A stretch of DNA of 64,000 nucleotides from the NCBI GenBank assembly GCA_965203055.1, contig OZ241863.1, forward strand, positions 96,001 to 160,000, read 5' to 3'. The notes beneath the pieces were generated by a model. It saw nothing but the letters and a program-made list of their open reading frames with translations, had not been told where the DNA came from and searched no databases. Shown here piece by piece: positions 1 through 32,821 of the stretch. Each line of letters starts with the position of its first letter. Position 1 is the first letter of the stretch. The translations under genes were made by a program, and so were the position numbers. Source of the stretch: Spirochaetia bacterium (GTDB lineage Bacteria > Spirochaetota > Spirochaetia > SZUA-6 > Bin103).

Positions 1-62
1 TGGAGTCGGAGGTCGTGGCGGATCGCCTATTGCTGACGTACTAAGCTCCTGATGGCGATCAG

Positions 63-2357
63 TCAGATGGAGGAAGCTTCAAGGGCATCCCAAAATCGCC
101 GTATCTGTGGCGGCACGTCGCTTGCTTTGTTTGCTCCTGACATGATCTTTTCCGGCGGAAACTGTCTGCGCAAGAACTCCTTGGCTGGCCCTGAAGCTGA
201 TTTTCGATCGATCGTCACTATACCGTGCTCAAGGAGAAGCCTGCGTAACCTGCGCCAGCGCCAGGAATCATGAAACAGACGACCCCCATCATCAACGTCG
301 TAGATCGGATTCGCTCGCTCGTATGCGCGCATCAGCCATTCGAGCAATTCCATTGATCGATCCGACACGTTCCGCCTATCTTGATCTGAATCAGTATCTA
401 CCGATGTTCCACAATCGGACAGCACACGCATGATCTTATCGGGAATACGTATTGTCTCCTTTCCCTTATCGATCAGACTCTGAACTCCAGCGACATCACG
501 TGGAACCCGGAGTCCATTCAGTTCCAGCCGGGTGCTCCCGACCTCCACCATTGGCTCCTCGAGCAAGATGTTGTGTGCGTAACACTCTACAAACTTCGTG
601 GCTCCCAAATTCGTCCGTCGTACTGTAACGCCGTCCAGCGTACAATTTCGCAAAGTGACGCCGGAAAGATCACCGCCGGGAAAGATTACGTTACTTATCT
701 TGAGCCCTGCTATGTCAGCCTCGTTGTTCGACCCGAATGCCTTCAACAAGGCCAAGACGATCAGTCCGGCATTTTCCCGAACCTGAGACGCTCGTCGCCA
801 TTCGTCACGTCCCGCCATCGCCAGACGGTTCAGCATTACTTGAAGATCATCAAGAGTTGACAAGGTGTCGTTTGTCATCACCTCTGCTGCAAATCGTTCA
901 GCGACCAACTCGGGCAACGCAGCGCGACTCAGGATCGCACGCAGGTCTGAATTCGAACCGTACTGCTCGGCAATAACACGGGCAAGGAAGTAGAAGAAAT
1001 AGACCTCATGCTCGAACCCGATCGTCTCATGCTTCTCACTGTGGGTGAGAAATGCAAGTGTCGGCATCCGTTCAATGATGATCTGTCTCTCAGACTCGTC
1101 AATTTCATCGTGAAGAAAAAACTCTGCGACTTCCCTTACGGATACACCATCGAGCTCGCGGGTCTCCTGGTTCCACATCTCTTCGGCAAGTTCTCGTACG
1201 ATCATTTCAAGCTGATCTTCGGACAACAGCGGTCGCTGTTGGCGATCGAGGATCTTCTCCGCCTGTTCCCGCTTCAGGAAGCTATGGATCAAGGTGTCAA
1301 GCAAGTTGCCATCTTCAGAAAATTCGCTACCCGTTAGTACCAAATCGACAGTCTTGGCAAAGAACAGCGGCTTATCCATGAGATGACTATCTTGTTGGAA
1401 CGCCGCGCGGACTTTTTTTCGTAACTCATTCTTCCTTTCCGTCGGCAGCGAGTATTGACGCGCGATCTCATTCAGGTAGTCTGACCGGTGGGCGTCGTCC
1501 CACGGCGCTATCTCCACGGGTATGTGCGACCATCGCTGTTTCCCCGTCGCAGCGGCTCGGTCGGCGCGCCGGAGGAACTCTTCCTCGTAATAAGTTGATC
1601 TAGCTGAGGTAATTATTCTACCGTAGCCATCCAGTTGTTCCAGAAAAGTCGCCAGAGTACTGAAGGCGTCATCATACCCACTGACCCCTAGAAGCTCGTC
1701 GAATCCGTCTATCACGGGCACCAACAGTCCTACGCGGACCAGGGTTGCAACGGAATGGTAAGTCAGGTTGACCCTCAGATCCTGCAGTTCCGTAGCAAGC
1801 GCTTCGTGCAGCCGCGCCAGGGCGCGGCCTTGCGCATTCACATATAGCAGCAACTTTCCCGTACTGCCGCGCAGGTACCGGTCGGCCTGTTGCCAGACCA
1901 GCTCCTGTAGCACCCGCGTCTTGCCGGCGCCGGCGCCGCCGGTGGCCATGATGACCTCGGTCACATCAGGCTCGTCATCTTCCATGAGTTCAGTGAGCAA
2001 CTCCGTGGCGGGTTGGGGTCCTTTCAGCACCCCGCCCCCATCCGGGCAGCGAGCTCCGGTAGGAACGAATATTTTGTCTTGTCTGGACCGATAGATCATG
2101 CGAGCGACATGCTTCAGATCTGCCATCCGTGTATCCGCAAGAAAAACGGTATACGGCAGGGTCGTACCGTTGGCGCTTGCGGTAACCTCGTGGTCTCGCG
2201 AAACCGTAAAATTAGCTTCCCGAGGTTCGCCGCGCATTTGCCACTCGGCCTGGAGTCTCCTCCCCGTTGCAGAGATCACGTGGATACCACCCGGGTCTGC
2301 AAATGACGTCAGGTCGCTTTCGATGCGCTCGAGGTCTGCGTCGTATGTCTCGCGCAC
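63..2357 (-). CDS. NACHT/STAND-like P-loop NTPase with C-terminal pentapeptide-like repeats
   Basis: Walker A GGAGAGKT, Walker B LVPVIDGFDEL, IITSARS sensor-like strand, KPLF (GxP-like position), FEHEVYFFYFLA wHTH-like motif, then FPGGDLSGVTLRNCTLDGVTVRRTNLGATKF repeat-like stretch. GTG start at 2357 is preceded by GGGAG and lies 4 nt after the upstream stop (the ORF track starts at 2414). Confidence 0.75.
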   Translation of the reverse strand: MRETYDADLERIESDLTSFADPGGIHVISATGRRLQAEWQMRGEPREANFTVSRDHEVTASANGTTLPYTVFLADTRMADLKHVARMIYRSRQDKIFVPTGARCPDGGGVLKGPQPATELLTELMEDDEPDVTEVIMATGGAGAGKTRVLQELVWQQADRYLRGSTGKLLLYVNAQGRALARLHEALATELQDLRVNLTYHSVATLVRVGLLVPVIDGFDELLGVSGYDDAFSTLATFLEQLDGYGRIITSARSTYYEEEFLRRADRAAATGKQRWSHIPVEIAPWDDAHRSDYLNEIARQYSLPTERKNELRKKVRAAFQQDSHLMDKPLFFAKTVDLVLTGSEFSEDGNLLDTLIHSFLKREQAEKILDRQQRPLLSEDQLEMIVRELAEEMWNQETRELDGVSVREVAEFFLHDEIDESERQIIIERMPTLAFLTHSEKHETIGFEHEVYFFYFLARVIAEQYGSNSDLRAILSRAALPELVAERFAAEVMTNDTLSTLDDLQVMLNRLAMAGRDEWRRASQVRENAGLIVLALLKAFGSNNEADIAGLKISNVIFPGGDLSGVTLRNCTLDGVTVRRTNLGATKFVECYAHNILLEEPMVEVGSTRLELNGLRVPRDVAGVQSLIDKGKETIRIPDKIMRVLSDCGTSVDTDSDQDRRNVSDRSMELLEWLMRAYERANPIYDVDDGGRLFHDSWRWRRLRRLLLEHGIVTIDRKSASGPAKEFLRRQFPPEKIMSGANKASDVPPQIRRFWDALEASSI

Positions 2358-2361
2358 TTGA

Positions 2362-2961
2362 TCAGCTCCCCAGTTGATGGACGGTAAGCCCCTCGCTGAC
2401 CAGCGCAGCGTCATTCATCGCTGAACCGACCTCTCTGGTACGCATCCATACGACCGCATCGGGGTGGCCTGCGTGCGCTGAGAGCGCGCCCGGGAGAAGA
2501 TCGTCATCGTCTGTCACAATGCCAACACAGGTCCGCGCCTGCGCCGCGGCATATAGCGCATCGCAGGCCAGCATGCCGTCTACCATTTTCTGTACGTAGC
2601 GGCGGTCGGTGCCGCTCCCGGTGGGAGGCCGCATCCGGCGCCGCACCGTGCCTCGCGGGTGAAACATCGGGAATTGGATCATCGAGGTGGCAAGCGCCGG
2701 ACGGACGATCAGGCCATTGCGCCGGCCGCGCAGCACCGGCAGCAACTCATGCAGCCATGACGCATGGCGGCTCGGCCATCCCTGCTCAGTGATCCATCCT
2801 CCGTACAGCCGGAGATCGAGCTCGCGCGCGTCCGGGAACAGGGTTGCGAACGCGCGAGACACCTGCTCCACGATGGTCAGAGTAACGAGTTCCAGATCAG
2901 CTTTCGAGTTCTGGTCACGGCGGCGAAAATTGTACCAGTCGACAAGAGCCAGCCCTTGCAT
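2362..2961 (-). CDS. NYN/LabA-like PIN-fold nuclease
   Basis: Acidic motifs LALVDWYN, LRLYGGW, QKMVDGMLACD and IVTDDDDLLP match the NYN catalytic layout (DxxN ... K.VD ... [ST]xDxD). Confidence 0.7.
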   Translation of the reverse strand: MQGLALVDWYNFRRRDQNSKADLELVTLTIVEQVSRAFATLFPDARELDLRLYGGWITEQGWPSRHASWLHELLPVLRGRRNGLIVRPALATSMIQFPMFHPRGTVRRRMRPPTGSGTDRRYVQKMVDGMLACDALYAAAQARTCVGIVTDDDDLLPGALSAHAGHPDAVVWMRTREVGSAMNDAALVSEGLTVHQLGS

Positions 2962-3105
2962 GAGTTACTACCCAACCCAATATACGACCTGGAGCGGGGG
3001 GTCAGCTTTGGGAAGCGGCCGGCCCGCCCGGTAGTGGTACGCGACGGGCCGGCTGCCGGTAATGGTGACGGAGGCGCTCCGGTTGCCGTTAGCCCACCCG
3101 CCTGA

Positions 3106-3189
3106 TGCCCGGAAGAGGACTCGAACCTCCACAGCCGTACGGCCACCAGACCCTGAACCTGGCGTGTCTACCAATTTCACCATCCGGGC
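3106..3189 (-). tRNA. tRNA-Leu(CAG)
   Basis: GCCCGGA acceptor stem, D-loop TTGGTAGAC, anticodon arm CCAGG-TT-CAG-GG-TCTGG, long variable arm, GGTTCGAGTCC T-loop. The discriminator A is followed by TCA, so CCA is not encoded. Confidence 0.95.
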
Positions 3190-3203
3190 AGGATGACGGT
3201 AAC

Positions 3204-3232
3204 AACCTACCCCTGCCCGGCACTCCTGTCAA
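3204..3232 (-). promoter_or_regulatory. sigma70-type promoter of tRNA-Leu
   Basis: TTGACA (3232-3227), 17 nt, TAGGTT (3209-3204), 14 nt upstream of the tRNA. Confidence 0.7.
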
Positions 3233-3283
3233 GACCTTGAGACGAGACGAGACGAGATCTGCGCCGCGCGGCGGGAGCGCCGG

Positions 3284-4915
3284 TCAGGCGGGGGCGGCGG
3301 CCCCCTGGCCGACGGTATCGGTCGGGCCGGTGAAGCCGGGACCGCCGGCCGCCACGTAGCCGCGGCTGGCGCCGGAGCGGTCCGGGCTCACCCAGAAGGA
3401 GTACAGCGCCGCGTCGCGCAGGTGGAAGCGCAGCCGCACCGGCCGGCCCGCGAGTTCCGCCAGGCCGCCGGCATTGCCCCAGGTGACCGCCTGCCGGGTG
3501 GCATCGCCGGTCACCGGCGCGCAGCGCTCGCGTGAGCAATGGCCGAGCGGGTTGCCGGCGGCGTCCAGCGCCTCCACCCGCAGCTCGCCGCCCGCCGCGG
3601 CGGCGTTGACGAACAGGTGGCGGCCGCTGAAGCGCAGCGGGCGGGTGGTCAACGTGCCGCCGTCGGCGCCGGCCGCATGGGACACGAAGCCGTCGCGGCG
3701 CAGGGTCGCCAGGCCGGTGCTGCCGCCGGCGTACATGTGCGCGCCGAGCTTCGGCGAGACGCCGGAGAAGGCGCCGAAGTAGAGGTAGAGCCGGTCGCCG
3801 ACGATCAGACAGCACCCGCCGCAGGAGTGGATGTAGTCGCGGTTCCAGTCGCCCGGCTGGTGGGTGCCGGCCACGATCGGCAGGCGGTCGCGGCGGTCGA
3901 AGTGGAACCCGTCCCGGCTGTAGCCCACCAGCAGCTCGGTGATCTTGGGAAACCCGCCGGCCTCGCAGATCTCGTTGGGCGGCCCGCGGTGGATCATGAA
4001 GAAACCCAGCATGAGACTCTCGTAGCCCACGGCATCGATGTTGTAGAGCTGGGTCGGGTAACCGTGTTCCGGGGCCGGCGGGTCCAGATCGTCGGCGCCG
4101 GCCCAGTGGGCGACTTGCTCCGGTTCCCAGGCGGCGCCGGCGAACAGGTCCGGGTGCTCGTGGTAGCCGCGCAGGCGCCCGACCGCCGGAGCGCTGGTGC
4201 GGATGCTGTATACCCAGCGCTTGCGGAACGGGTTGTAGAAGATGGTGGTATTGTCGCCGCCGCGGCCGGTGGCGGCGCGTTCGCGCCAGTGGATGCCGTC
4301 CGCCGAGGAATAGACGTGGCCGCCCACCCACTCGTTGGCGGTGCCGGGGCCGCCCAGCTCGCCGTAGCGGAAGCCGGCGCCGCGCCGGCGGTGGTAGGCG
4401 AACATCTTGAAGCGTTCCGCGGCGCGCGCGGCCTCCTGATCGAGCCATACTCCGACGCCGTCCCGCTGATAGCTGGGCCGTAGCGGCAGCACCCGGTTGG
4501 TACCCGGCTCCACGTCCAACTCCGGGCGCTCCCAATGCACGCCGTCGCGGCTGGTGGCCAACGCCACTCCGTCGAACCAGCCGGCGTGGTACCACAGCTT
4601 GAACAGCCCGTCCGCCGGATCGTAGAAGGCGCCGTCCTTGAATGGGCAGGCCGTGGGACACAGCCCGAAGTTCATTTCCAACGGGGTCTCCGGCACCAGC
4701 ACCGGGCTTGCCTCGTGCAGCACCGGGGTATGGAACTCGCGCCGCAGGGAACTCTCGGCGATCAGAAACTCATCCACCAGGAGTTGCCGCCCCACGTCGA
4801 TGGGGATCACCGCCGGCGGCCGCTCCAGGTAGGGGACCGGCCCCGGCTCCCGCGCCTCGCGCGCCAGCCCGCGCGGCGGCCACTCCGCAGGTTGCTCGAT
4901 CCCGTTGTAGCTCAC
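3284..4915 (-). CDS. Beta-propeller glycoside hydrolase-like protein (GH32/GH43-like clan)
   Basis: Repeated Asp-box-like motifs SRDGVHW, SADGIHW, SRDGFHF; typical GRQLLVDEFLI N-terminus and LRRDGFVS...LYSFW C-terminal domain. GTG start overlaps the MazG stop (GTGA). Confidence 0.6.
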   Translation of the reverse strand: MSYNGIEQPAEWPPRGLAREAREPGPVPYLERPPAVIPIDVGRQLLVDEFLIAESSLRREFHTPVLHEASPVLVPETPLEMNFGLCPTACPFKDGAFYDPADGLFKLWYHAGWFDGVALATSRDGVHWERPELDVEPGTNRVLPLRPSYQRDGVGVWLDQEAARAAERFKMFAYHRRRGAGFRYGELGGPGTANEWVGGHVYSSADGIHWRERAATGRGGDNTTIFYNPFRKRWVYSIRTSAPAVGRLRGYHEHPDLFAGAAWEPEQVAHWAGADDLDPPAPEHGYPTQLYNIDAVGYESLMLGFFMIHRGPPNEICEAGGFPKITELLVGYSRDGFHFDRRDRLPIVAGTHQPGDWNRDYIHSCGGCCLIVGDRLYLYFGAFSGVSPKLGAHMYAGGSTGLATLRRDGFVSHAAGADGGTLTTRPLRFSGRHLFVNAAAAGGELRVEALDAAGNPLGHCSRERCAPVTGDATRQAVTWGNAGGLAELAGRPVRLRFHLRDAALYSFWVSPDRSGASRGYVAAGGPGFTGPTDTVGQGAAAPA

Positions 4916-5901: not shown

Positions 5902-8004
5902 ATGACCGCCGAGGTCAGCGCCCGCCTGCGCTTCGCGCCCGACGGCACGCTCACCGTGCTCAGCGGCAAGGTAGAGCTGGGCCAGGGCCTGCGCGACGCC
6001 CTGACCCTGATCTGCAGCACCGAACTGTCGCTCGACGCGCGCCGCATCCGCGTGCGCTGCGGCGACACCGGGCTGACCCCGGACGACGGCCTTACCGCGG
6101 GCAGCAACTCGATGGAGCAGACCGGCGCCGCGGTGCGCGCCGCGGCCGTTGCGGCCCGCGACGAGTTGCTGCGCCGGGCGGCGGCGCGCTGGCAGGCGCC
6201 GCCCGGCGAGCTCGTAGCGCGCGCCGGCCGCGTCCGGCGGCGGGACGGGGAGGGCGCCGCGCTCGACTACTGGGAGCTCCTCGACGCCGGCGAGATGGAG
6301 GATCTGCCTCCCGCGCCGCGGGAAGAGCGCGCGCCGGCGGGGCGGGTGGCGGCGCTGGTGAGTGGGTGCGACACCTTCGTGCATGATCTGCGGCTGCCCG
6401 GCATGGCGCATGGCCGCGTGCTGCGGCCGCCGGGCTACGGCCGGCGGCTGACGCGCCTCGATGACCGCGCCGCCGGCGCCATGCGCGGCGTCCTGGCGGT
6501 GGTGGTCGACGGCAGCTTCGCCGGCGTGGTGGCGGAGCGCGAGGAGCAGGCGATCGCCGCCCGCGACGTGCTGGCCGGCGGCGCTCGCTGGCAGGCGCCC
6601 GCCGATGCCGCGCTGCCGGCCTCCGGCCGCGCCGCCCTGGCCGAGGCCGCGGCCCACGCTACGCCGATCCTCGACCGCGGGACGGCGCCGGCGCAGGCCG
6701 TGGCGGCAACGCTCAGCGCCACCTACTCGCGGCCGTTTCTGCTGCACGCGGCGTTGGGCCCCTCGGCCGCGGCGGCGCGCCTGGACGCCGCGGGGCGGCT
6801 CACCGTCTGGTCGCACACCCAGGGGCCGTTTCAACTGCGCGCCGCGCTGGCCGACGCGCTGGCGCGGGAGCCGGCCGGCATCCGGGTAATCCACGTCGAC
6901 GGGGCCGGCTGCTACGGCCACAACGGCGCCGACGACGCGGCGTTGGACGCGGCGCTGCTGGCCCTGGCGGTGCCCGGGCGGCCGGTGCTGGTCAAGTGGA
7001 CGCGAACCGACGAGAACCGGTGGGAGCCGTTCGGCAGCGCGATGATCGTCACCTGCGCCGCCGACCTGGACGCCGCCGGCAGCGTGCTGCATTGGCGCCA
7101 TGAGGTGCGCAGCTACCCCCACGGCGCCCGCCCGCGCGCCGCGCCGGGACACTCGGCGCTGCTGGCCGCCTGGCACCGGCGCCGCGCGCTGGCGCCGCCG
7201 CCGGTGCGCAACAGCCGCGGCCTGACCGCCGGTCCGCAGCGCAACGCCGAGCCGCCGTACCGGTTCCCGCGGGTAAGCGTGGTTACCCACTTCGTACCCG
7301 AGGCCCCGGTGCGAGTCTCCGCCCTGCGCAGCCTCGGCGCCTACGCCAACGTGTTCGCCGCCGAGTCGTTCATGGATGAGCTGGCAGCCTGCGCCGGCGC
7401 CGATCCGGTGTCCTATCGGCTGCGCCACTTGCGCGACCACCGCGCGCGTGACGTGCTGGCCGCGGCGGTCGCCGCGGCGCCGGCCGCCGGAGGCGGGAGG
7501 TATCGCGGGCGCGGCGTCGGGCTGGCGCGCTACAAGAACCTGCAGAGCTACGTCGCCGTGGTGTGCGACGCGGCGGTGGATCCCGGCAGCGGGCGCATCC
7601 GCCTCGAACACGCCGCCATTGCCGCCGACGCCGGCCGCATCATCGATCGCGACGGTCTTGCCAACCAGCTCGAAGGGGGCTTCCTGCAGGCCGCGAGCTG
7701 GACGCTGAAGGAAGCGGTACGCTGGGACCACGCGGGAATGACCGGTACCGACTGGGATTCCTATCCGGTGCTGCGCTTCAGCGAGGTGCCGCCGGTTGCG
7801 CTGCGCCTGCTCGACCGGCCGGAACTGCCCAGCCTGGGCGCCGGCGAAGCCGCCCACGGTCCGGCCGCGGCGGCCATCGCCAACGCCGCGGCGGCCGCGG
7901 CCGGAGTGCGCCTGCGGCACACCCCGTTCACGCCGGCGCGGGTAATGGCGGCCCTCACTGCCGGCCCGGACGCGCGCACACCTCGGCCAGCGCCGCCACG
8001 GTAG
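5902..8004 (+). CDS. Molybdopterin-binding large subunit, xanthine dehydrogenase family (IorB/NicB-like)
   Basis: GKVELGQG, TAGSNS, GAGCYGHNGADD, SALRSLGA, QLEGG and GAGE motifs; this is the 3' part of the 4642..8004 ORF. Confidence 0.85.
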   Translation: MTAEVSARLRFAPDGTLTVLSGKVELGQGLRDALTLICSTELSLDARRIRVRCGDTGLTPDDGLTAGSNSMEQTGAAVRAAAVAARDELLRRAAARWQAPPGELVARAGRVRRRDGEGAALDYWELLDAGEMEDLPPAPREERAPAGRVAALVSGCDTFVHDLRLPGMAHGRVLRPPGYGRRLTRLDDRAAGAMRGVLAVVVDGSFAGVVAEREEQAIAARDVLAGGARWQAPADAALPASGRAALAEAAAHATPILDRGTAPAQAVAATLSATYSRPFLLHAALGPSAAAARLDAAGRLTVWSHTQGPFQLRAALADALAREPAGIRVIHVDGAGCYGHNGADDAALDAALLALAVPGRPVLVKWTRTDENRWEPFGSAMIVTCAADLDAAGSVLHWRHEVRSYPHGARPRAAPGHSALLAAWHRRRALAPPPVRNSRGLTAGPQRNAEPPYRFPRVSVVTHFVPEAPVRVSALRSLGAYANVFAAESFMDELAACAGADPVSYRLRHLRDHRARDVLAAAVAAAPAAGGGRYRGRGVGLARYKNLQSYVAVVCDAAVDPGSGRIRLEHAAIAADAGRIIDRDGLANQLEGGFLQAASWTLKEAVRWDHAGMTGTDWDSYPVLRFSEVPPVALRLLDRPELPSLGAGEAAHGPAAAAIANAAAAAAGVRLRHTPFTPARVMAALTAGPDARTPRPAPPR

Positions 8005-11192: not shown

Positions 11193-12410
11193 CTACAGCG
11201 CACTGAGAGCGGGGCCGGCCGCCGCTCCGATCAGTACCACCAGCCAGGGCGGCAGCTTCCACCACGCCAGCAGGCCGAACGCCGCCAGCGCCAGCGCCAA
11301 GTCGCCCGGCGCATGGATCGCCGTGACCCACACCGGATCGTACAGCGCCGCCAGCAGCAGGCCCACCACCGCGGCGTTGACCCCCGCGACGGCGGCGCGG
11401 AAGCGGCCGGCCGAGCGCAGCCGGTCCCAGAGCGGCAGGATGCCGATCAGCAGCAGAAACGAGGGCAGATAGATGGCGCCGAGGGCCACCGCTCCGCCGC
11501 GCCAGCCGCCCGCCGGTCCCGCCATCACCGTCCCCAGATAGGCGGAGAAGGTGAACAGCGGCCCCGGAACCGCCTGCGCCGCCCCGTAGCCGGCGATGAA
11601 CTGGTCGCCGGTCACCCAGCCGGCCGGCTCCACCTCGGCCTGCAGCAGCGGCAGCACCACGTGCCCGCCGCCGAATACCAGTGCGCCCGAACGGTAGAAC
11701 CCGTCGATCAGCGCCAGCCAGGCGTGGTCCGTAAACTGCCGGGCAACCGGCAGCCCGGCCAGCAGGATCAGAAACAGGGCCAGGCAGATGACCGTCCGGT
11801 GGACGGCGGTTCCCGCACCGGCGCGCACCGGCGCCCGCGGAGACGCGGCCTCGTCTCGCAGCAGCAGCCACCCGGCCGCCCCGGCAAGGGCAATGACCAG
11901 CACCTGGGCCAGCGGCGTCCGCCAGAACAGCATGCCGACGGCGGCCAGCGCGGCGATGGTAGCGCGGCGGCGGTCGGGCGCCAAGTTGTGCGCCATACCG
12001 TAGAGCGCGTATGCGACCACCGCCGCCGCCACTGCCTTGAGGCCCCGCAGCCAGCCCGCGGCGATCAGTTGCTCGAAGGTCGCCACCCCGTAGCCGAACA
12101 GGATCAGCGCCGCCGCGGAGGGCAGCGTGAAGCCGAGCCACGCCGCCACCCCGCCGCCGATTCCGGCGCGCGTCATGCCCACCGCGATGCCGACCTGACT
12201 GCTGGCGGGACCGGGCAGCAACTGGCACAGGGCCACCAGATCGGCATAGGAGCGGTCGTCCAGCCACCGGCGCCGGGTAACGTACTCGGCGCGGAAGTAG
12301 CCGAGGTGGGCGACCGGCCCGCCAAATGAGGTGACGCCCAGCTTCAGCGCCGCGAGCAGCACTTCGAGAATCCGAGACCGCACGACCTGCCGTTGCCCGC
12401 CGTCCGTCAC
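11193..12410 (-). CDS. chrA: Chromate efflux transporter (CHR family)
   Basis: SFGGPVAHLGYF, QLLPGPASSQ, GALVFGGGHVVLPLL, AQAVPGP. Confidence 0.92.
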   Translation of the reverse strand: MTDGGQRQVVRSRILEVLLAALKLGVTSFGGPVAHLGYFRAEYVTRRRWLDDRSYADLVALCQLLPGPASSQVGIAVGMTRAGIGGGVAAWLGFTLPSAAALILFGYGVATFEQLIAAGWLRGLKAVAAAVVAYALYGMAHNLAPDRRRATIAALAAVGMLFWRTPLAQVLVIALAGAAGWLLLRDEAASPRAPVRAGAGTAVHRTVICLALFLILLAGLPVARQFTDHAWLALIDGFYRSGALVFGGGHVVLPLLQAEVEPAGWVTGDQFIAGYGAAQAVPGPLFTFSAYLGTVMAGPAGGWRGGAVALGAIYLPSFLLLIGILPLWDRLRSAGRFRAAVAGVNAAVVGLLLAALYDPVWVTAIHAPGDLALALAAFGLLAWWKLPPWLVVLIGAAAGPALSAL

Positions 12411-32008: not shown

Positions 32009-32821
32009 TCAGCGGTCGACCGGATCCTTGAGGCGAACCATGATGCGTTGCCGGAGGCGGTCCCGCTTCACCTCGAAGGCGTCGTTGCGCGCGGCGATGA
32101 TCTTGACCAGCTTGGAGGAGCCGTAGGTGCGCGGGTCGAACGCCGGGTCCAGCTTCTTGAGGTTGTTGGCGATCTTGCGCAGGTCGACCCACGCCGACTC
32201 CTGATCCACCATCTCATGGGCCTCGGTGACGATGGAGATCAGGTCGGCGTCGACGCTGGCATCCTCGATCCCCATACTGCCGTTCGGACCCGGATCGCCG
32301 GCCGCCGGCTCGGGAGTCGCGCCGGCCGGGTTGTCGCGCCGCCGCGGCCGCCGGCGCCGGTCGCCCTCGTAGCTCTTCATGATGTTCTCGACGTAGCGAA
32401 ACTCGTTGCAGGCGTTGACGAACGGCTTCGGGGTATGGTGCTTGCCGATCCCGACCACCTCCATTCCCGCCTCCCGCAGACGAATCGCCAGCTTGGTATA
32501 GTCGCTGTCGCTGGAGACGATCACGAATCCGCCGACGTGATCGCTGTAGAGGATATCCATGGCGTCGATGATCATCGCCGAGTCGGTGGCGTTCTTGCCG
32601 ACCGTGTTGCGGAACTGCTGGATCGGCTGAATGGCGTGTACCGGGAGCTTCTTCTTCCACGAGTCGAGCTGCGGCGTGGTCCAGTCGCCGTAGATCCGGC
32701 GAATGGTGACCACACCGAACTTCACGACTTCCTTCATGACGTGTTCGATTTGCGAAGCCTGCGCGTTGTCGCCGTCGATCAGGACGGCCAGACGGCGCTC
32801 GGCGCTAATGGTTGGACTCAT
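32009..32821 (-). CDS. NYN domain RNase with C-terminal OST-HTH/LOTUS
   Basis: LAVLIDGDN, RRIYGDW, GKNATD, IVSSDSDY; FDPRTYG..KL LOTUS signature. Confidence 0.9.
   Translation of the reverse strand: MSPTISAERRLAVLIDGDNAQASQIEHVMKEVVKFGVVTIRRIYGDWTTPQLDSWKKKLPVHAIQPIQQFRNTVGKNATDSAMIIDAMDILYSDHVGGFVIVSSDSDYTKLAIRLREAGMEVVGIGKHHTPKPFVNACNEFRYVENIMKSYEGDRRRRPRRRDNPAGATPEPAAGDPGPNGSMGIEDASVDADLISIVTEAHEMVDQESAWVDLRKIANNLKKLDPAFDPRTYGSSKLVKIIAARNDAFEVKRDRLRQRIMVRLKDPVDR

Follow-up and report, generated by a model that had tools for sequence, protein, structure and literature searches.

The window analysed here is a stretch of 64,000 nucleotides (nt) from a Spirochaetia bacterium (GenBank assembly GCA_965203055.1, contig OZ241863.1, positions 96,001 to 160,000), and at its left end, downstream of a tRNA-Leu gene, lie two co-oriented genes that are 4 nt apart. 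The first of these, gene A, encodes a small protein that we assign, from its relatives and its modelled fold, to the NYN (PIN-like) nucleases, and the second, gene B, encodes a large protein that can be placed at the family level among the NACHT-type STAND NTPases. Comparison across genomes indicates that the pair is a real, tightly conserved and mobile two-gene module, with the NYN family newly recognised as the partner. Coordinates are window positions unless a locus with the prefix L or G is named. The features of the locus are as follows.

3104..3190, minus strand: tRNA-Leu(CAG), with the Rfam tRNA at 3106-3189; in the comparison with the genome G009, the islet has the 3' end of this tRNA gene as its border on the right
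2362..2961, minus strand: gene A, predicted 199-aa divergent NYN (PIN-like) nuclease, with candidate catalytic residues D8, N11, D128, D134, D152 and D154
2366..2371, minus strand: GGGGAG, a Shine-Dalgarno-like site for the NTPase, read from the sequence, within the 3' end of gene A
63..2357, minus strand: gene B, predicted 764-aa NACHT-type STAND NTPase, with a GTG start and its stop codon at 63-65
1983..2357, minus strand: NTPase residues 1-125, N-terminal domain, which may be the docking site of the NYN protein
768..1955, minus strand: NTPase residues ~135-530, NACHT module, with the Pfam NACHT match at residues 135-228 and extent taken from invariant columns
531..758, minus strand: NTPase residues ~534-609, short pentapeptide-repeat (beta-solenoid) stretch located with the family profile, the presumed sensor surface
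66..500, minus strand: NTPase residues ~620-764, C-terminal domain, among the most variable parts by column entropy
1..3101, no strand: the portion inside the window of a low-GC insertion of 5.1 kb, of which a further 2,015 bases lie to the left of the window, from the comparison with G009

The list of open reading frames (ORFs) gives gene A as 2362..2961(-), with 199 aa, and the NTPase as 63..2414(-), within which the GTG at 2357 opens the 764-aa frame whose N-terminus can be aligned with relatives from residue 1. At the junction of the two genes (CTGGGGAGCTGATCAAGTGCGC, read as GGGGAG-CTGA-TCAA-GTG), the stop codon TGA of gene A (2364-2362) is separated by the spacer TCAA (2361-2358) from the GTG (2357-2355), and the GGGGAG (2371-2366) lies 8 nt upstream of this GTG, inside the end of gene A. 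The gap from the 3' end of the tRNA-Leu gene to the start of gene A, on the same strand, is 142 nt. The ORF, junction and tRNA calls thus agree with the original prediction, made by eye from the letters of this DNA, that two co-oriented genes lie 4 nt apart downstream of tRNA-Leu with the ribosome-binding site of the NTPase inside the 3' end of the nuclease gene. Its hand counts of GC (29/60 at 361-420 and 53/60 at 6181-6240) were exact, and the pair is indeed low in GC relative to the host: 54.7% for the NTPase gene and 63.7% for the NYN gene, against 70.8% for window positions 3300-64000, with GC at third codon positions of 60%, 72% and, in the next host gene, 91%. A promoter and terminator scan of positions 1-3300 returned nothing above shuffled sequences and nothing between the tRNA and gene A, and the Rfam scan returned the tRNA alone.

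Identity of the two proteins

The 199-aa protein encoded by gene A has no match in Pfam (0 families at E ≤ 1), PADLOC or NCBIfam. Its family comprises 168 proteins at E ≤ 1e-3 among 520 candidates, with no Pfam domain and no source name among the 120 matches listed, and an exhaustive profile search, counted in clusters at 50% identity, gave 911 clusters at E ≤ 1e-3, 341 at ≤ 1e-10 and 96 at ≤ 1e-30; the best 150 representatives are nearly all 185-225 aa long, none exceeding 310 aa. The structural model of the protein shows the three layers of a PIN-like fold and has solved NYN domains as its nearest structures, with Foldseek probabilities of 0.96-0.99 for the three matched structures and weak E-values of its own (~5e-3). 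Comparison of language-model features placed three clusters nearest (score 0.90, with 173-174 features in common), and 27-36% of their members have PF01936. Pfam NYN is matched in six of eight divergent relatives encoded by the upstream gene (E 1e-6 to 2.4e-3), of which only L042 scores above the cut-off (29.7 vs 24.2 bits). The profile-profile comparison by hhalign of 27 gene A family members, including distant ones (A3), with 15 canonical PF01936 domains from related genomes (A4) gave Prob 93% and E 3.4e-7 over 112 columns, and in this alignment D8/N11, D128 and D152/D154 fall on D7/N10, D71 and D96/D98, which are invariant or near-invariant in the canonical set. A comparison with one canonical NYN sequence, which gave Prob 3%, was superseded by the 15-sequence profile. 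The residues D8, N11, D128, D134, D152 and D154 are identical in all 22 of the NYN-NTPase pairs that were kept for the co-divergence test described below, across both subfamilies.

The searches of PDB sequences with the profile of the gene A family (A1) and with A3 matched no NYN structure, and Foldseek found nothing at E ≤ 1e-3 when the NYN model was compared with viral structures. The only match of these profiles is a likeness to a CCA-adding enzyme (9ns4) over ~40 residues around the sequence R-L-Y-G-G-W (E 0.63 with A1, 0.0038 with A3), which is part of an invariant E-x-D-x-R-L-Y-G-G-W motif at residues 47-60 of gene A; we take it as a motif coincidence, because the fold search lent no support to a nucleotidyltransferase fold. 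By fold, profile-profile match and invariant Asp residues, the product of gene A is a divergent NYN protein with predicted nuclease activity, an identity that had been called by eye and that fold and profile-profile comparison bear out. It is only 10-12% identical to the NYN nucleases MARF1 (PDB 5yaa, 6fdl), VPA0982/LabA-like (2qip) and PF01936, and lacks the Pfam match. In comparison with MARF1 and VPA0982 it has ~60 extra residues, from the second strand to the QKMVD helix, which include the invariant R-L-Y-G-G-W; it has no OST-HTH/LOTUS domain and is always paired with a NACHT NTPase.

A canonical NYN protein with an OST-HTH/LOTUS domain (Pfam 5.2e-36 and 1.1e-10) is encoded elsewhere in the window, at 32009-32821(-). 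Its orthologue was found in 18/18 family genomes searched, with top PF01936 matches of E ~1e-33 to 1e-36, and its similarity to the gene A product is not detectable by single-sequence comparison. A housekeeping NYN and the NYN of the islet are thus present in one genome.

The product of gene B scores 25.3-25.4 bits against Pfam NACHT (PF05729), below the cut-off of 26.7, and its identity holds at the level of the family, where NACHT is matched in 39/39 aligned relatives at E ≤ 0.01 (best 1.2e-9). Of its 554 homologues at E ≤ 1e-3, two are named 'NACHT domain-containing protein' by their sources. NACHT proteins are defined by a Walker A motif, a Walker B motif of the form hhhhDGxDE and a sensor Arg after the Walker B strand. 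In the 39 sequences the Walker A residues G143-x-G145-K146-T147, the Walker B residues D217-G-F-D220-E221, R253 within S-A-R, and F448-E-H450 in the winged-helix region are all invariant, and K146, D217, E221, R253 and H450 remain identical in 22/22 pairs, including those of the deep second subfamily. A diagnostic winged-helix His of NACHT proteins is described in the text of Kibby et al. (bioRxiv 10.1101/2022.07.19.500537). Because both the NTP-binding and the nuclease residues are invariant, conservation suggests that both activities matter. The domain boundaries within the protein, read from sequence, are approximate.

Beyond the NACHT module, Pentapeptide matches the window's protein at E 0.016 (15.2 bits vs a cut-off of 20.2), Pentapeptide_4 matches 25/39 relatives at E ≤ 0.01 (best 7e-8, counted by E-value), and positions 534-609 of the NTPase family profile align with solved pentapeptide proteins at E 7e-5 to 1e-3. 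The stretch is short, with ~15 repeats in a five-residue register. Residues 1-125 have no Pfam, PDB-profile or Atlas match (the best Atlas score, 0.83, is at chance level); D15, F19, D21, G23, W39, S53, Y69 and F72 are invariant there, with no recognised catalytic motif and no conserved catalytic-looking triad beyond D15 and D21. Residues ~620-764 have no match in the Pfam or PDB-profile search, and this C-terminal domain and residues 281-320 are the most variable parts of the protein by column entropy. The family profile, together with Pfam on the relatives, supports the order of domains read at the outset, namely an N-terminal domain, a NACHT-like core, pentapeptide-like repeats and a C-terminal domain, and by these comparisons the gene B product is, at the family level, a NACHT-type STAND NTPase with a short pentapeptide stretch.

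These domain assignments bear on which of the two proteins would act as the effector. One alternative is that the NYN protein serves as a sensor or adaptor, for example by binding a foreign RNA end, and that a host factor, or one of the two terminal domains of the NTPase, carries the lethal activity. A conserved 125-residue domain does stand at the effector or adaptor position of NLR proteins as laid out in the bNACHT preprint (bioRxiv 10.1101/2022.07.19.500537), and both terminal domains of the NTPase are without a fold match; however, the invariance of all NYN catalytic positions over deep divergence argues that they serve catalysis, D15 and D21 are all that the N-terminal domain has towards a conserved catalytic-looking triad, and in the fused form described below it is the NYN domain that takes the N-terminus, the usual position of an effector. 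We consider such a division of labour improbable.

Linkage and co-inheritance of the pair

To describe how the two genes are distributed, we draw on a pattern scan of ~185,000 species genomes, with one genome per species, which yielded 38 loci with relatives of gene A, and on an independent scan of metagenome contigs, which yielded 12. The NTPase gene lies directly downstream of gene A on the same strand in 37/38 genome loci, the exception being L029, where gene A is cut to its first 131 residues, and it has this position and strand in 11/12 metagenome loci, the exception being L096, where the contig ends 143 nt after gene A. Linkage of the homologues across genomes, which had been set beforehand as a check on the original prediction, is thus observed in both scans. 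The record titles of the 38 loci name Acidobacteriota, Binatota, Latescibacterota, Spirochaetota, Gemmatimonadota, Planctomycetota, Alpha- and Gammaproteobacteria and Actinomycetes, and the loci come from at least eight phyla. One relative occurs in a cultured strain, Methylorubrum rhodinum DSM 2163 (L035). The distance from the stop codon of gene A to the nearest fitting NTPase start lies between -20 and +21 nt in 30 of the 35 loci measured, most commonly at -8 or -4, and the remaining five either belong to copies that are fused, truncated or decayed or show a 57-nt gap. Conservation does not extend to any gene besides these two; the commonest neighbour family after the pair itself is found in 7 loci.

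To assess whether the two proteins have diverged together, we compared their pairwise protein distances over 22 pairs, 17 loci with truncated, fused or odd-length ORFs having been dropped. The NYN and NTPase distances show a strong correlation (r = 0.943), and 0/2000 permutations reached a value as high. This correlation shows co-inheritance, not contact. A fusion, P0214 (971 aa), joins gene A to the whole NTPase with the NYN domain at the N-terminus, as checked by alignment; it is one of five longer NYN-family proteins found, two of which have a NACHT match, the second being P0244 (560 aa, a match only). A further in-frame fusion, in L017, is a decayed copy in which the NTPase part is broken further on, and decayed copies were also seen in L024, L029 and L039. 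Because stop and start codons usually overlap, co-inheritance is strict and fusion occurs on occasion, we suggest that the two proteins form a stoichiometric complex.

The family contains a second, deeply diverged subfamily that keeps the gene order, in which the NTPase is ~26% identical to that of the window and the NYN protein has ~240 aa with a Cys-rich insert. Distant NTPase paralogues (24-30% identity) occur in 9/23 genomes of the window's family and are taken, on sequence identity, to belong to this second subfamily. Among five loci of the window's family, a clear NYN-like gene lies upstream in the four complete ones (L044, L045, L046 and L048), with L044 being a close orthologue of the first subfamily, and the fifth, L047, has a weak NYN match and an NTPase with an internal stop.

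Two further observations concern individual members. The second-subfamily NYN proteins at L036:7983-8732, L037:7995-8717, L038:7995-8717 and L042:7416-8234 have ~40 residues inserted after the T-x-R motif and before the QKxVD helix; with its four spaced Cys, this insert looks like a zinc ribbon. At L023:8001-13911, two NYN-NTPase pairs stand in tandem, the first NTPase being split over two frames; ARAGORN calls a tRNA-Leu(CAG) there at 11496-11582(-), inside the second NYN ORF, which is probably a false call.

Mobility and genomic context

In G009, a genome of the same genus that is 89% identical over the flank, a pyridoxal phosphate (PLP)-enzyme gene abuts the tRNA-Leu gene, with a 12-nt gap between the aligned blocks. 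In the window's genome, 5.1 kb (L004:15986 to window 3101) lie between these two genes, and the cargo of this islet consists of an AAA_21 ATPase gene, a D12 adenine methyltransferase gene, the NTPase gene and the NYN gene. The ATPase (AAA_21/AAA_15, 311 aa, L004:16173-17108(+)) has NsnB and AriA as its best PADLOC rows, and the methyltransferase (L004:17160-18044(+), its last 44 bases being window 1-44(+)) matches MTase_II at 2e-69. Both genes converge on the NTPase gene, and in other genomes the pair occurs without them. A restriction enzyme was not seen beside the methyltransferase, and the islet contains no integrase and no att-like direct repeat at its borders, where the best shared run is 11 nt.

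A second low-GC insertion relative to G009, of 4.3 kb, occupies L004:10277-14620 (G000:C1:88277-92620) between a peptidase S58 gene and the PLP-enzyme gene, ~1.4 kb further to the left, so that the PLP-enzyme gene separates it from the islet of the pair. It encodes a 582-aa protein with AAA-ATPase_like and PDDEXK_9 matches, a 539-aa AriAB/OLD-like ATPase and a 303-aa ORF without a family. These two insertions are therefore separate islets within a short stretch of the chromosome.

The presence of the pair is patchy. A close orthologue of the NTPase (53% identity) was found in 1/23 other genomes of the family and in 0/10 genomes of the same genus, and a sample of 400 further genomes from across the phylum gave no match to the gene A profile. 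A quick maximum-likelihood tree, with supports from the Shimodaira-Hasegawa-like approximate likelihood ratio test (SH-aLRT), groups the NTPase of the window with Latescibacterota, Binatota and Spirochaetota rows (SH-aLRT 97); fitting six phylum labels to it takes 9 changes, against a minimum of 5, so the phyla are mixed. At L007:5502-12738 a hydantoinase A gene and a hydantoinase B gene directly border the pair, one on each side, so that it splits an operon-like gene pair. Integrase genes flank the pair in L020 (two) and L024, and transposase genes in L011, L015 and L037. Hence the pair is, as judged from these comparisons, an accessory, horizontally mobile module. Just downstream of the pair at L011:11514-13847(+), a DruA-like region (Pfam DruA, 2.5e-34) is joined to Tn5-type transposase domains.

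As for the original prediction that tRNA adjacency marks an island, it stood for the window, where the border of the islet is the 3' end of tRNA-Leu, and did not stand as a general property, a tRNA being called within the flanks in only 3/39 related loci. Contigs of four studies span both genes with few differences, which fits mobility, as do the tandem pairs of L023 and the split hydantoinase genes of L007. The stretch L089:1-8000 (G000:C1:92501-100500) was found in 20 public runs from 8 studies, with labels that include sponge and marine metagenomes and none recorded as RNA. A single joint in the X5 contig (2800 to 6515 of L089) cannot be trusted, one of its sides being 21 letters long, and a lower summed read depth over the islet is not interpretable.

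This distribution bears on a second alternative, in which the pair is a non-immune regulatory module, the NTPase being an NTP-switched scaffold that directs the RNase to host RNAs, as in the turnover of RNAs related to stress or symbiosis. Canonical bacterial NYN proteins are housekeeping proteins, as the NYN-LOTUS gene present in 18/18 family genomes illustrates, many neighbours of the pair are metabolic genes, and the pair is kept with few differences in the contigs of the four studies. Such a role is nevertheless hard to reconcile with a close orthologue in 1/23 family genomes and 0/400 genomes of the phylum sample, with the foreign composition of an insertion that the close relative G009 does not have, with a neighbourhood that differs at every locus and with the decayed copies (L017, L024, L029, L039), and we regard it as unlikely, on a par with the sensor or adaptor role of the NYN protein weighed above.

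To characterise the neighbourhood, flank ORFs were called by a greedy longest-ORF rule, and some of them are spurious for that reason. There are 146 nearest flank ORFs (two per side where present), and 134 of these were scanned with Pfam and PADLOC; the 12 longest of the 146 were scanned with PADLOC, 11 of them also with Pfam; and of a further 222 flank ORFs of ≥ 120 aa the nearest 119 were scanned with PADLOC alone. Credible defence or toxin-antitoxin genes were found within ±8 kb in ~10/38 related loci.

L005: PDC-M07A, E 2.8e-100
L006: NsnB-like ATPase
L016: HEC-05
L019: DarT and NADAR
L020: type I methyltransferase; PD-DExK/NucC-like nuclease
L026: type I methyltransferase and specificity subunit
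L028: HmaB, 1168 bits
L038: type II restriction enzyme (REase_II)
L040: SoFic
L041: SoFic; PDC-S01

Several other PADLOC rows were set aside as not defence, namely ABC transporters matching mad3/AriA (L009, L010, L033, L036, L041), IscS-like enzymes matching SspA/DndA (L040, L041), oxidoreductases in L008 and L028, an E1-like protein in L006, and weak rows for pVip (L021), PsyrT (L037) and pAgo/SIR2 (L026, L028).

The context also bears on a third alternative, that the pair is a toxin-antitoxin-like addiction or stress module, in which the NYN protein is the toxin and the NTPase its ATP-dependent keeper, so that loss of the module kills the cell and no specific phage sensing takes place. A small nuclease that is translationally coupled to a larger partner, that in most loci stands alone with housekeeping genes on either side, that is mobile and patchy, and that was not found in the phage set (NYN) or the plasmid set (both proteins) would fit such a module. 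However, a STAND protein of 764 aa with a repeat 'sensor' far exceeds what an antitoxin needs, no gene for a small labile protein follows the NYN gene and no small partner gene is conserved, and the NACHT proteins assayed to date, as the bNACHT preprint presents them, are infection sensors (bioRxiv 10.1101/2022.07.19.500537). The idea also overlaps with an anti-phage role, in that abortive-infection systems are often toxin-antitoxin-like. We hold it to be rather unlikely, if somewhat less so than the other two alternatives.

Proposed role and relation to known systems

We favour, with a probability of about 0.6, the reading that the pair is an NLR-like module for conflict or for defence against phages, in which the nuclease effector is supplied in trans by a gene of its own. 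On sequence grounds it looks like a self-contained two-gene version of the bacterial NLR (NACHT/STAND) sensors that have otherwise been studied mostly as single proteins.

Several observations weigh against this reading. Neither protein of the pair reaches a Pfam cut-off alone, and since the N- and C-terminal domains of the NTPase match no fold, an effector could in principle lie there. Fusions are rare, with two of the five longer forms having a NACHT match and none of the best 150 representatives exceeding 310 aa. Neither protein was matched in the plasmid set, the NYN protein was not matched in the phage set and the NYN profile was not matched in viral contigs. A tRNA next to the pair is, as noted, the exception among related loci. 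Most nearest neighbours are housekeeping enzymes and transporters; PADLOC matched 6/134 nearest-neighbour ORFs at E ≤ 1e-5, of which two were judged real (L038 REase_II and L041 SoFic). As for the expectation that homologues would sit in defence islands, ~10/38 loci have credible defence or toxin-antitoxin genes nearby, and this modest context is given as a plain count and is not called an enrichment.

If the favoured reading is correct, both genes would be translated together from one mRNA in roughly equal amounts, and the resting NTPase, with ADP bound, would keep the NYN nuclease attached and inactive, the 125-residue N-terminal domain of the NTPase being the probable site. The C-terminal pentapeptide solenoid and the end domain may bind a foreign protein or another cue of infection, upon which the NACHT module would exchange its nucleotide and oligomerise. 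The NYN domains clustered in this way would become active and cut RNA, or less likely single-stranded DNA, so that the invader or the infected cell is stopped. The target of the nuclease is probably RNA, an expectation that derives from what NYN enzymes do. We infer the binding, the trigger, the substrate and the defence role from comparison with better-known proteins. bNACHT25, a fusion of a nuclease with NACHT, becomes toxic in a nuclease-dependent manner when its winged-helix His is mutated, according to the text of Kibby et al. (bioRxiv 10.1101/2022.07.19.500537). Because of this, activation is expected by analogy to unleash the NYN nuclease, and winged-helix His mutants of the pair's NTPase should likewise be toxic, and nuclease-dependently so.

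A broader proposal, to which we give somewhat less than even odds, is that the pair represents a widespread, unannotated class of two-component bacterial NLR, in which the NACHT protein, as the sensor, docks its own NYN RNase on an N-terminal domain reserved for that partner and so recruits and activates it; the small partner family comprises ~900 protein clusters at 50% identity. If this were true, it would be the first immune use of the NYN fold in bacteria and would be the prokaryotic counterpart of the antiviral NYN RNases of animals and of the cnidarian immune proteins with NYN domains that are mentioned in Kaur et al.

Work on bacterial NLR-like sensors has dealt mostly with single proteins to which the killing domain is fused. 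In a conserved split version the parts can be mutated, titrated and purified apart, which would give access to how the STAND/NACHT switch activates a separate enzyme. The idea is directly testable because a relative occurs in the cultured M. rhodinum strain. The analysis also gives an annotation, as a predicted NYN nuclease with an NLR partner, to a protein family without a Pfam or NCBIfam name, and it would add an RNase class that is not listed among the bNACHT effectors in the text of the preprint (bioRxiv 10.1101/2022.07.19.500537). The claim is a modest one, for the pair is one candidate among many predicted defence modules and is rare, with 38 loci in ~185,000 species genomes.

The searches agree with the claim made at the outset that the pair matches no named system. 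In PADLOC-DB 2.0.0 the two proteins gave a single weak row at E ≤ 1 (mad8, E 0.016), and in NCBIfam nothing came near a cut-off, the best being DS8_antiphage with 15 bits against a cut-off of 790. No NYN-NACHT pair was found in the literature searched, which did not cover supplementary tables listing architectures, where such a pair could be held. Searches for 'NYN domain' with defence and phage gave nothing relevant, and those for 'nSTAND5' gave unrelated papers only. Among known systems, Avs proteins are STAND NTPases that couple recognition of a phage protein to a nuclease or another effector, and they are single proteins with fused effectors and TPR-like sensors. The pair resembles them in combining a STAND NTPase with a nuclease and differs from them in its NACHT-like core, its presumed pentapeptide sensor, its presumed effector in trans and the lack of a PADLOC match.

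In the literature on NYN domains, the available text of Kaur et al. 2021 mentions NYN only in animal TRADD-N proteins, and that of a 2024 Dnd paper has NYN only in its reference list. The two-gene nuclease-NTPase systems (Gabija, Hachiman, AbpAB, Azaca) resemble the pair in being operons of one nuclease and one NTPase, and their complexes control the activity of the nuclease, as set out in bioRxiv 10.1101/2025.07.10.664194. The nucleases named in the available text of that preprint are PD-(D/E)XK, PLD-like and Toprim/OLD, unlike the NYN of the pair, which it does not name; it names Gabija, Mokosh, Hachiman and related systems, with 'STAND' occurring 4 times and NACHT not named, and the PADLOC models of these systems have no match to the pair. 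The CARD-NLR-like systems, such as that with gasdermin (PMC10312443) and the Caulobacter CARD-NLR (PMC13236601), share with the pair an NLR-like NTPase accompanied by separately encoded proteins, downstream of it in their case; they use CARD-like adaptors, proteases, gasdermin or other effectors. In contrast, the only partner in our pair is one nuclease gene, and no CARD-like domain was recognised.

The closest comparison is with the bNACHT proteins as they appear in the main text of Kibby et al. (bioRxiv 10.1101/2022.07.19.500537), where the RNase effectors are Schlafen and HEPN, neither NYN nor PIN is named, and bNACHT genes are only rarely in operons, which are poorly conserved. Like bNACHT25, in which an Mrr-like nuclease is joined to NACHT, the pair has a NACHT module with Walker A and B motifs and the winged-helix His, and it has a nuclease, which is the killing part in bNACHT25 and whose role in the pair is predicted from sequence. 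It also shares with bNACHT a repeat-type, presumed sensor at the C-terminus, pentapeptide repeats being among the bNACHT sensors, as well as the accessory and mobile nature of the genes. Unlike bNACHT, the presumed effector of the pair is a separate, translationally coupled gene in 37/38 loci instead of an N-terminal fusion, and the NTPase, with a NACHT score below the Pfam cut-off, keeps an N-terminal domain of its own that is without a fold match.

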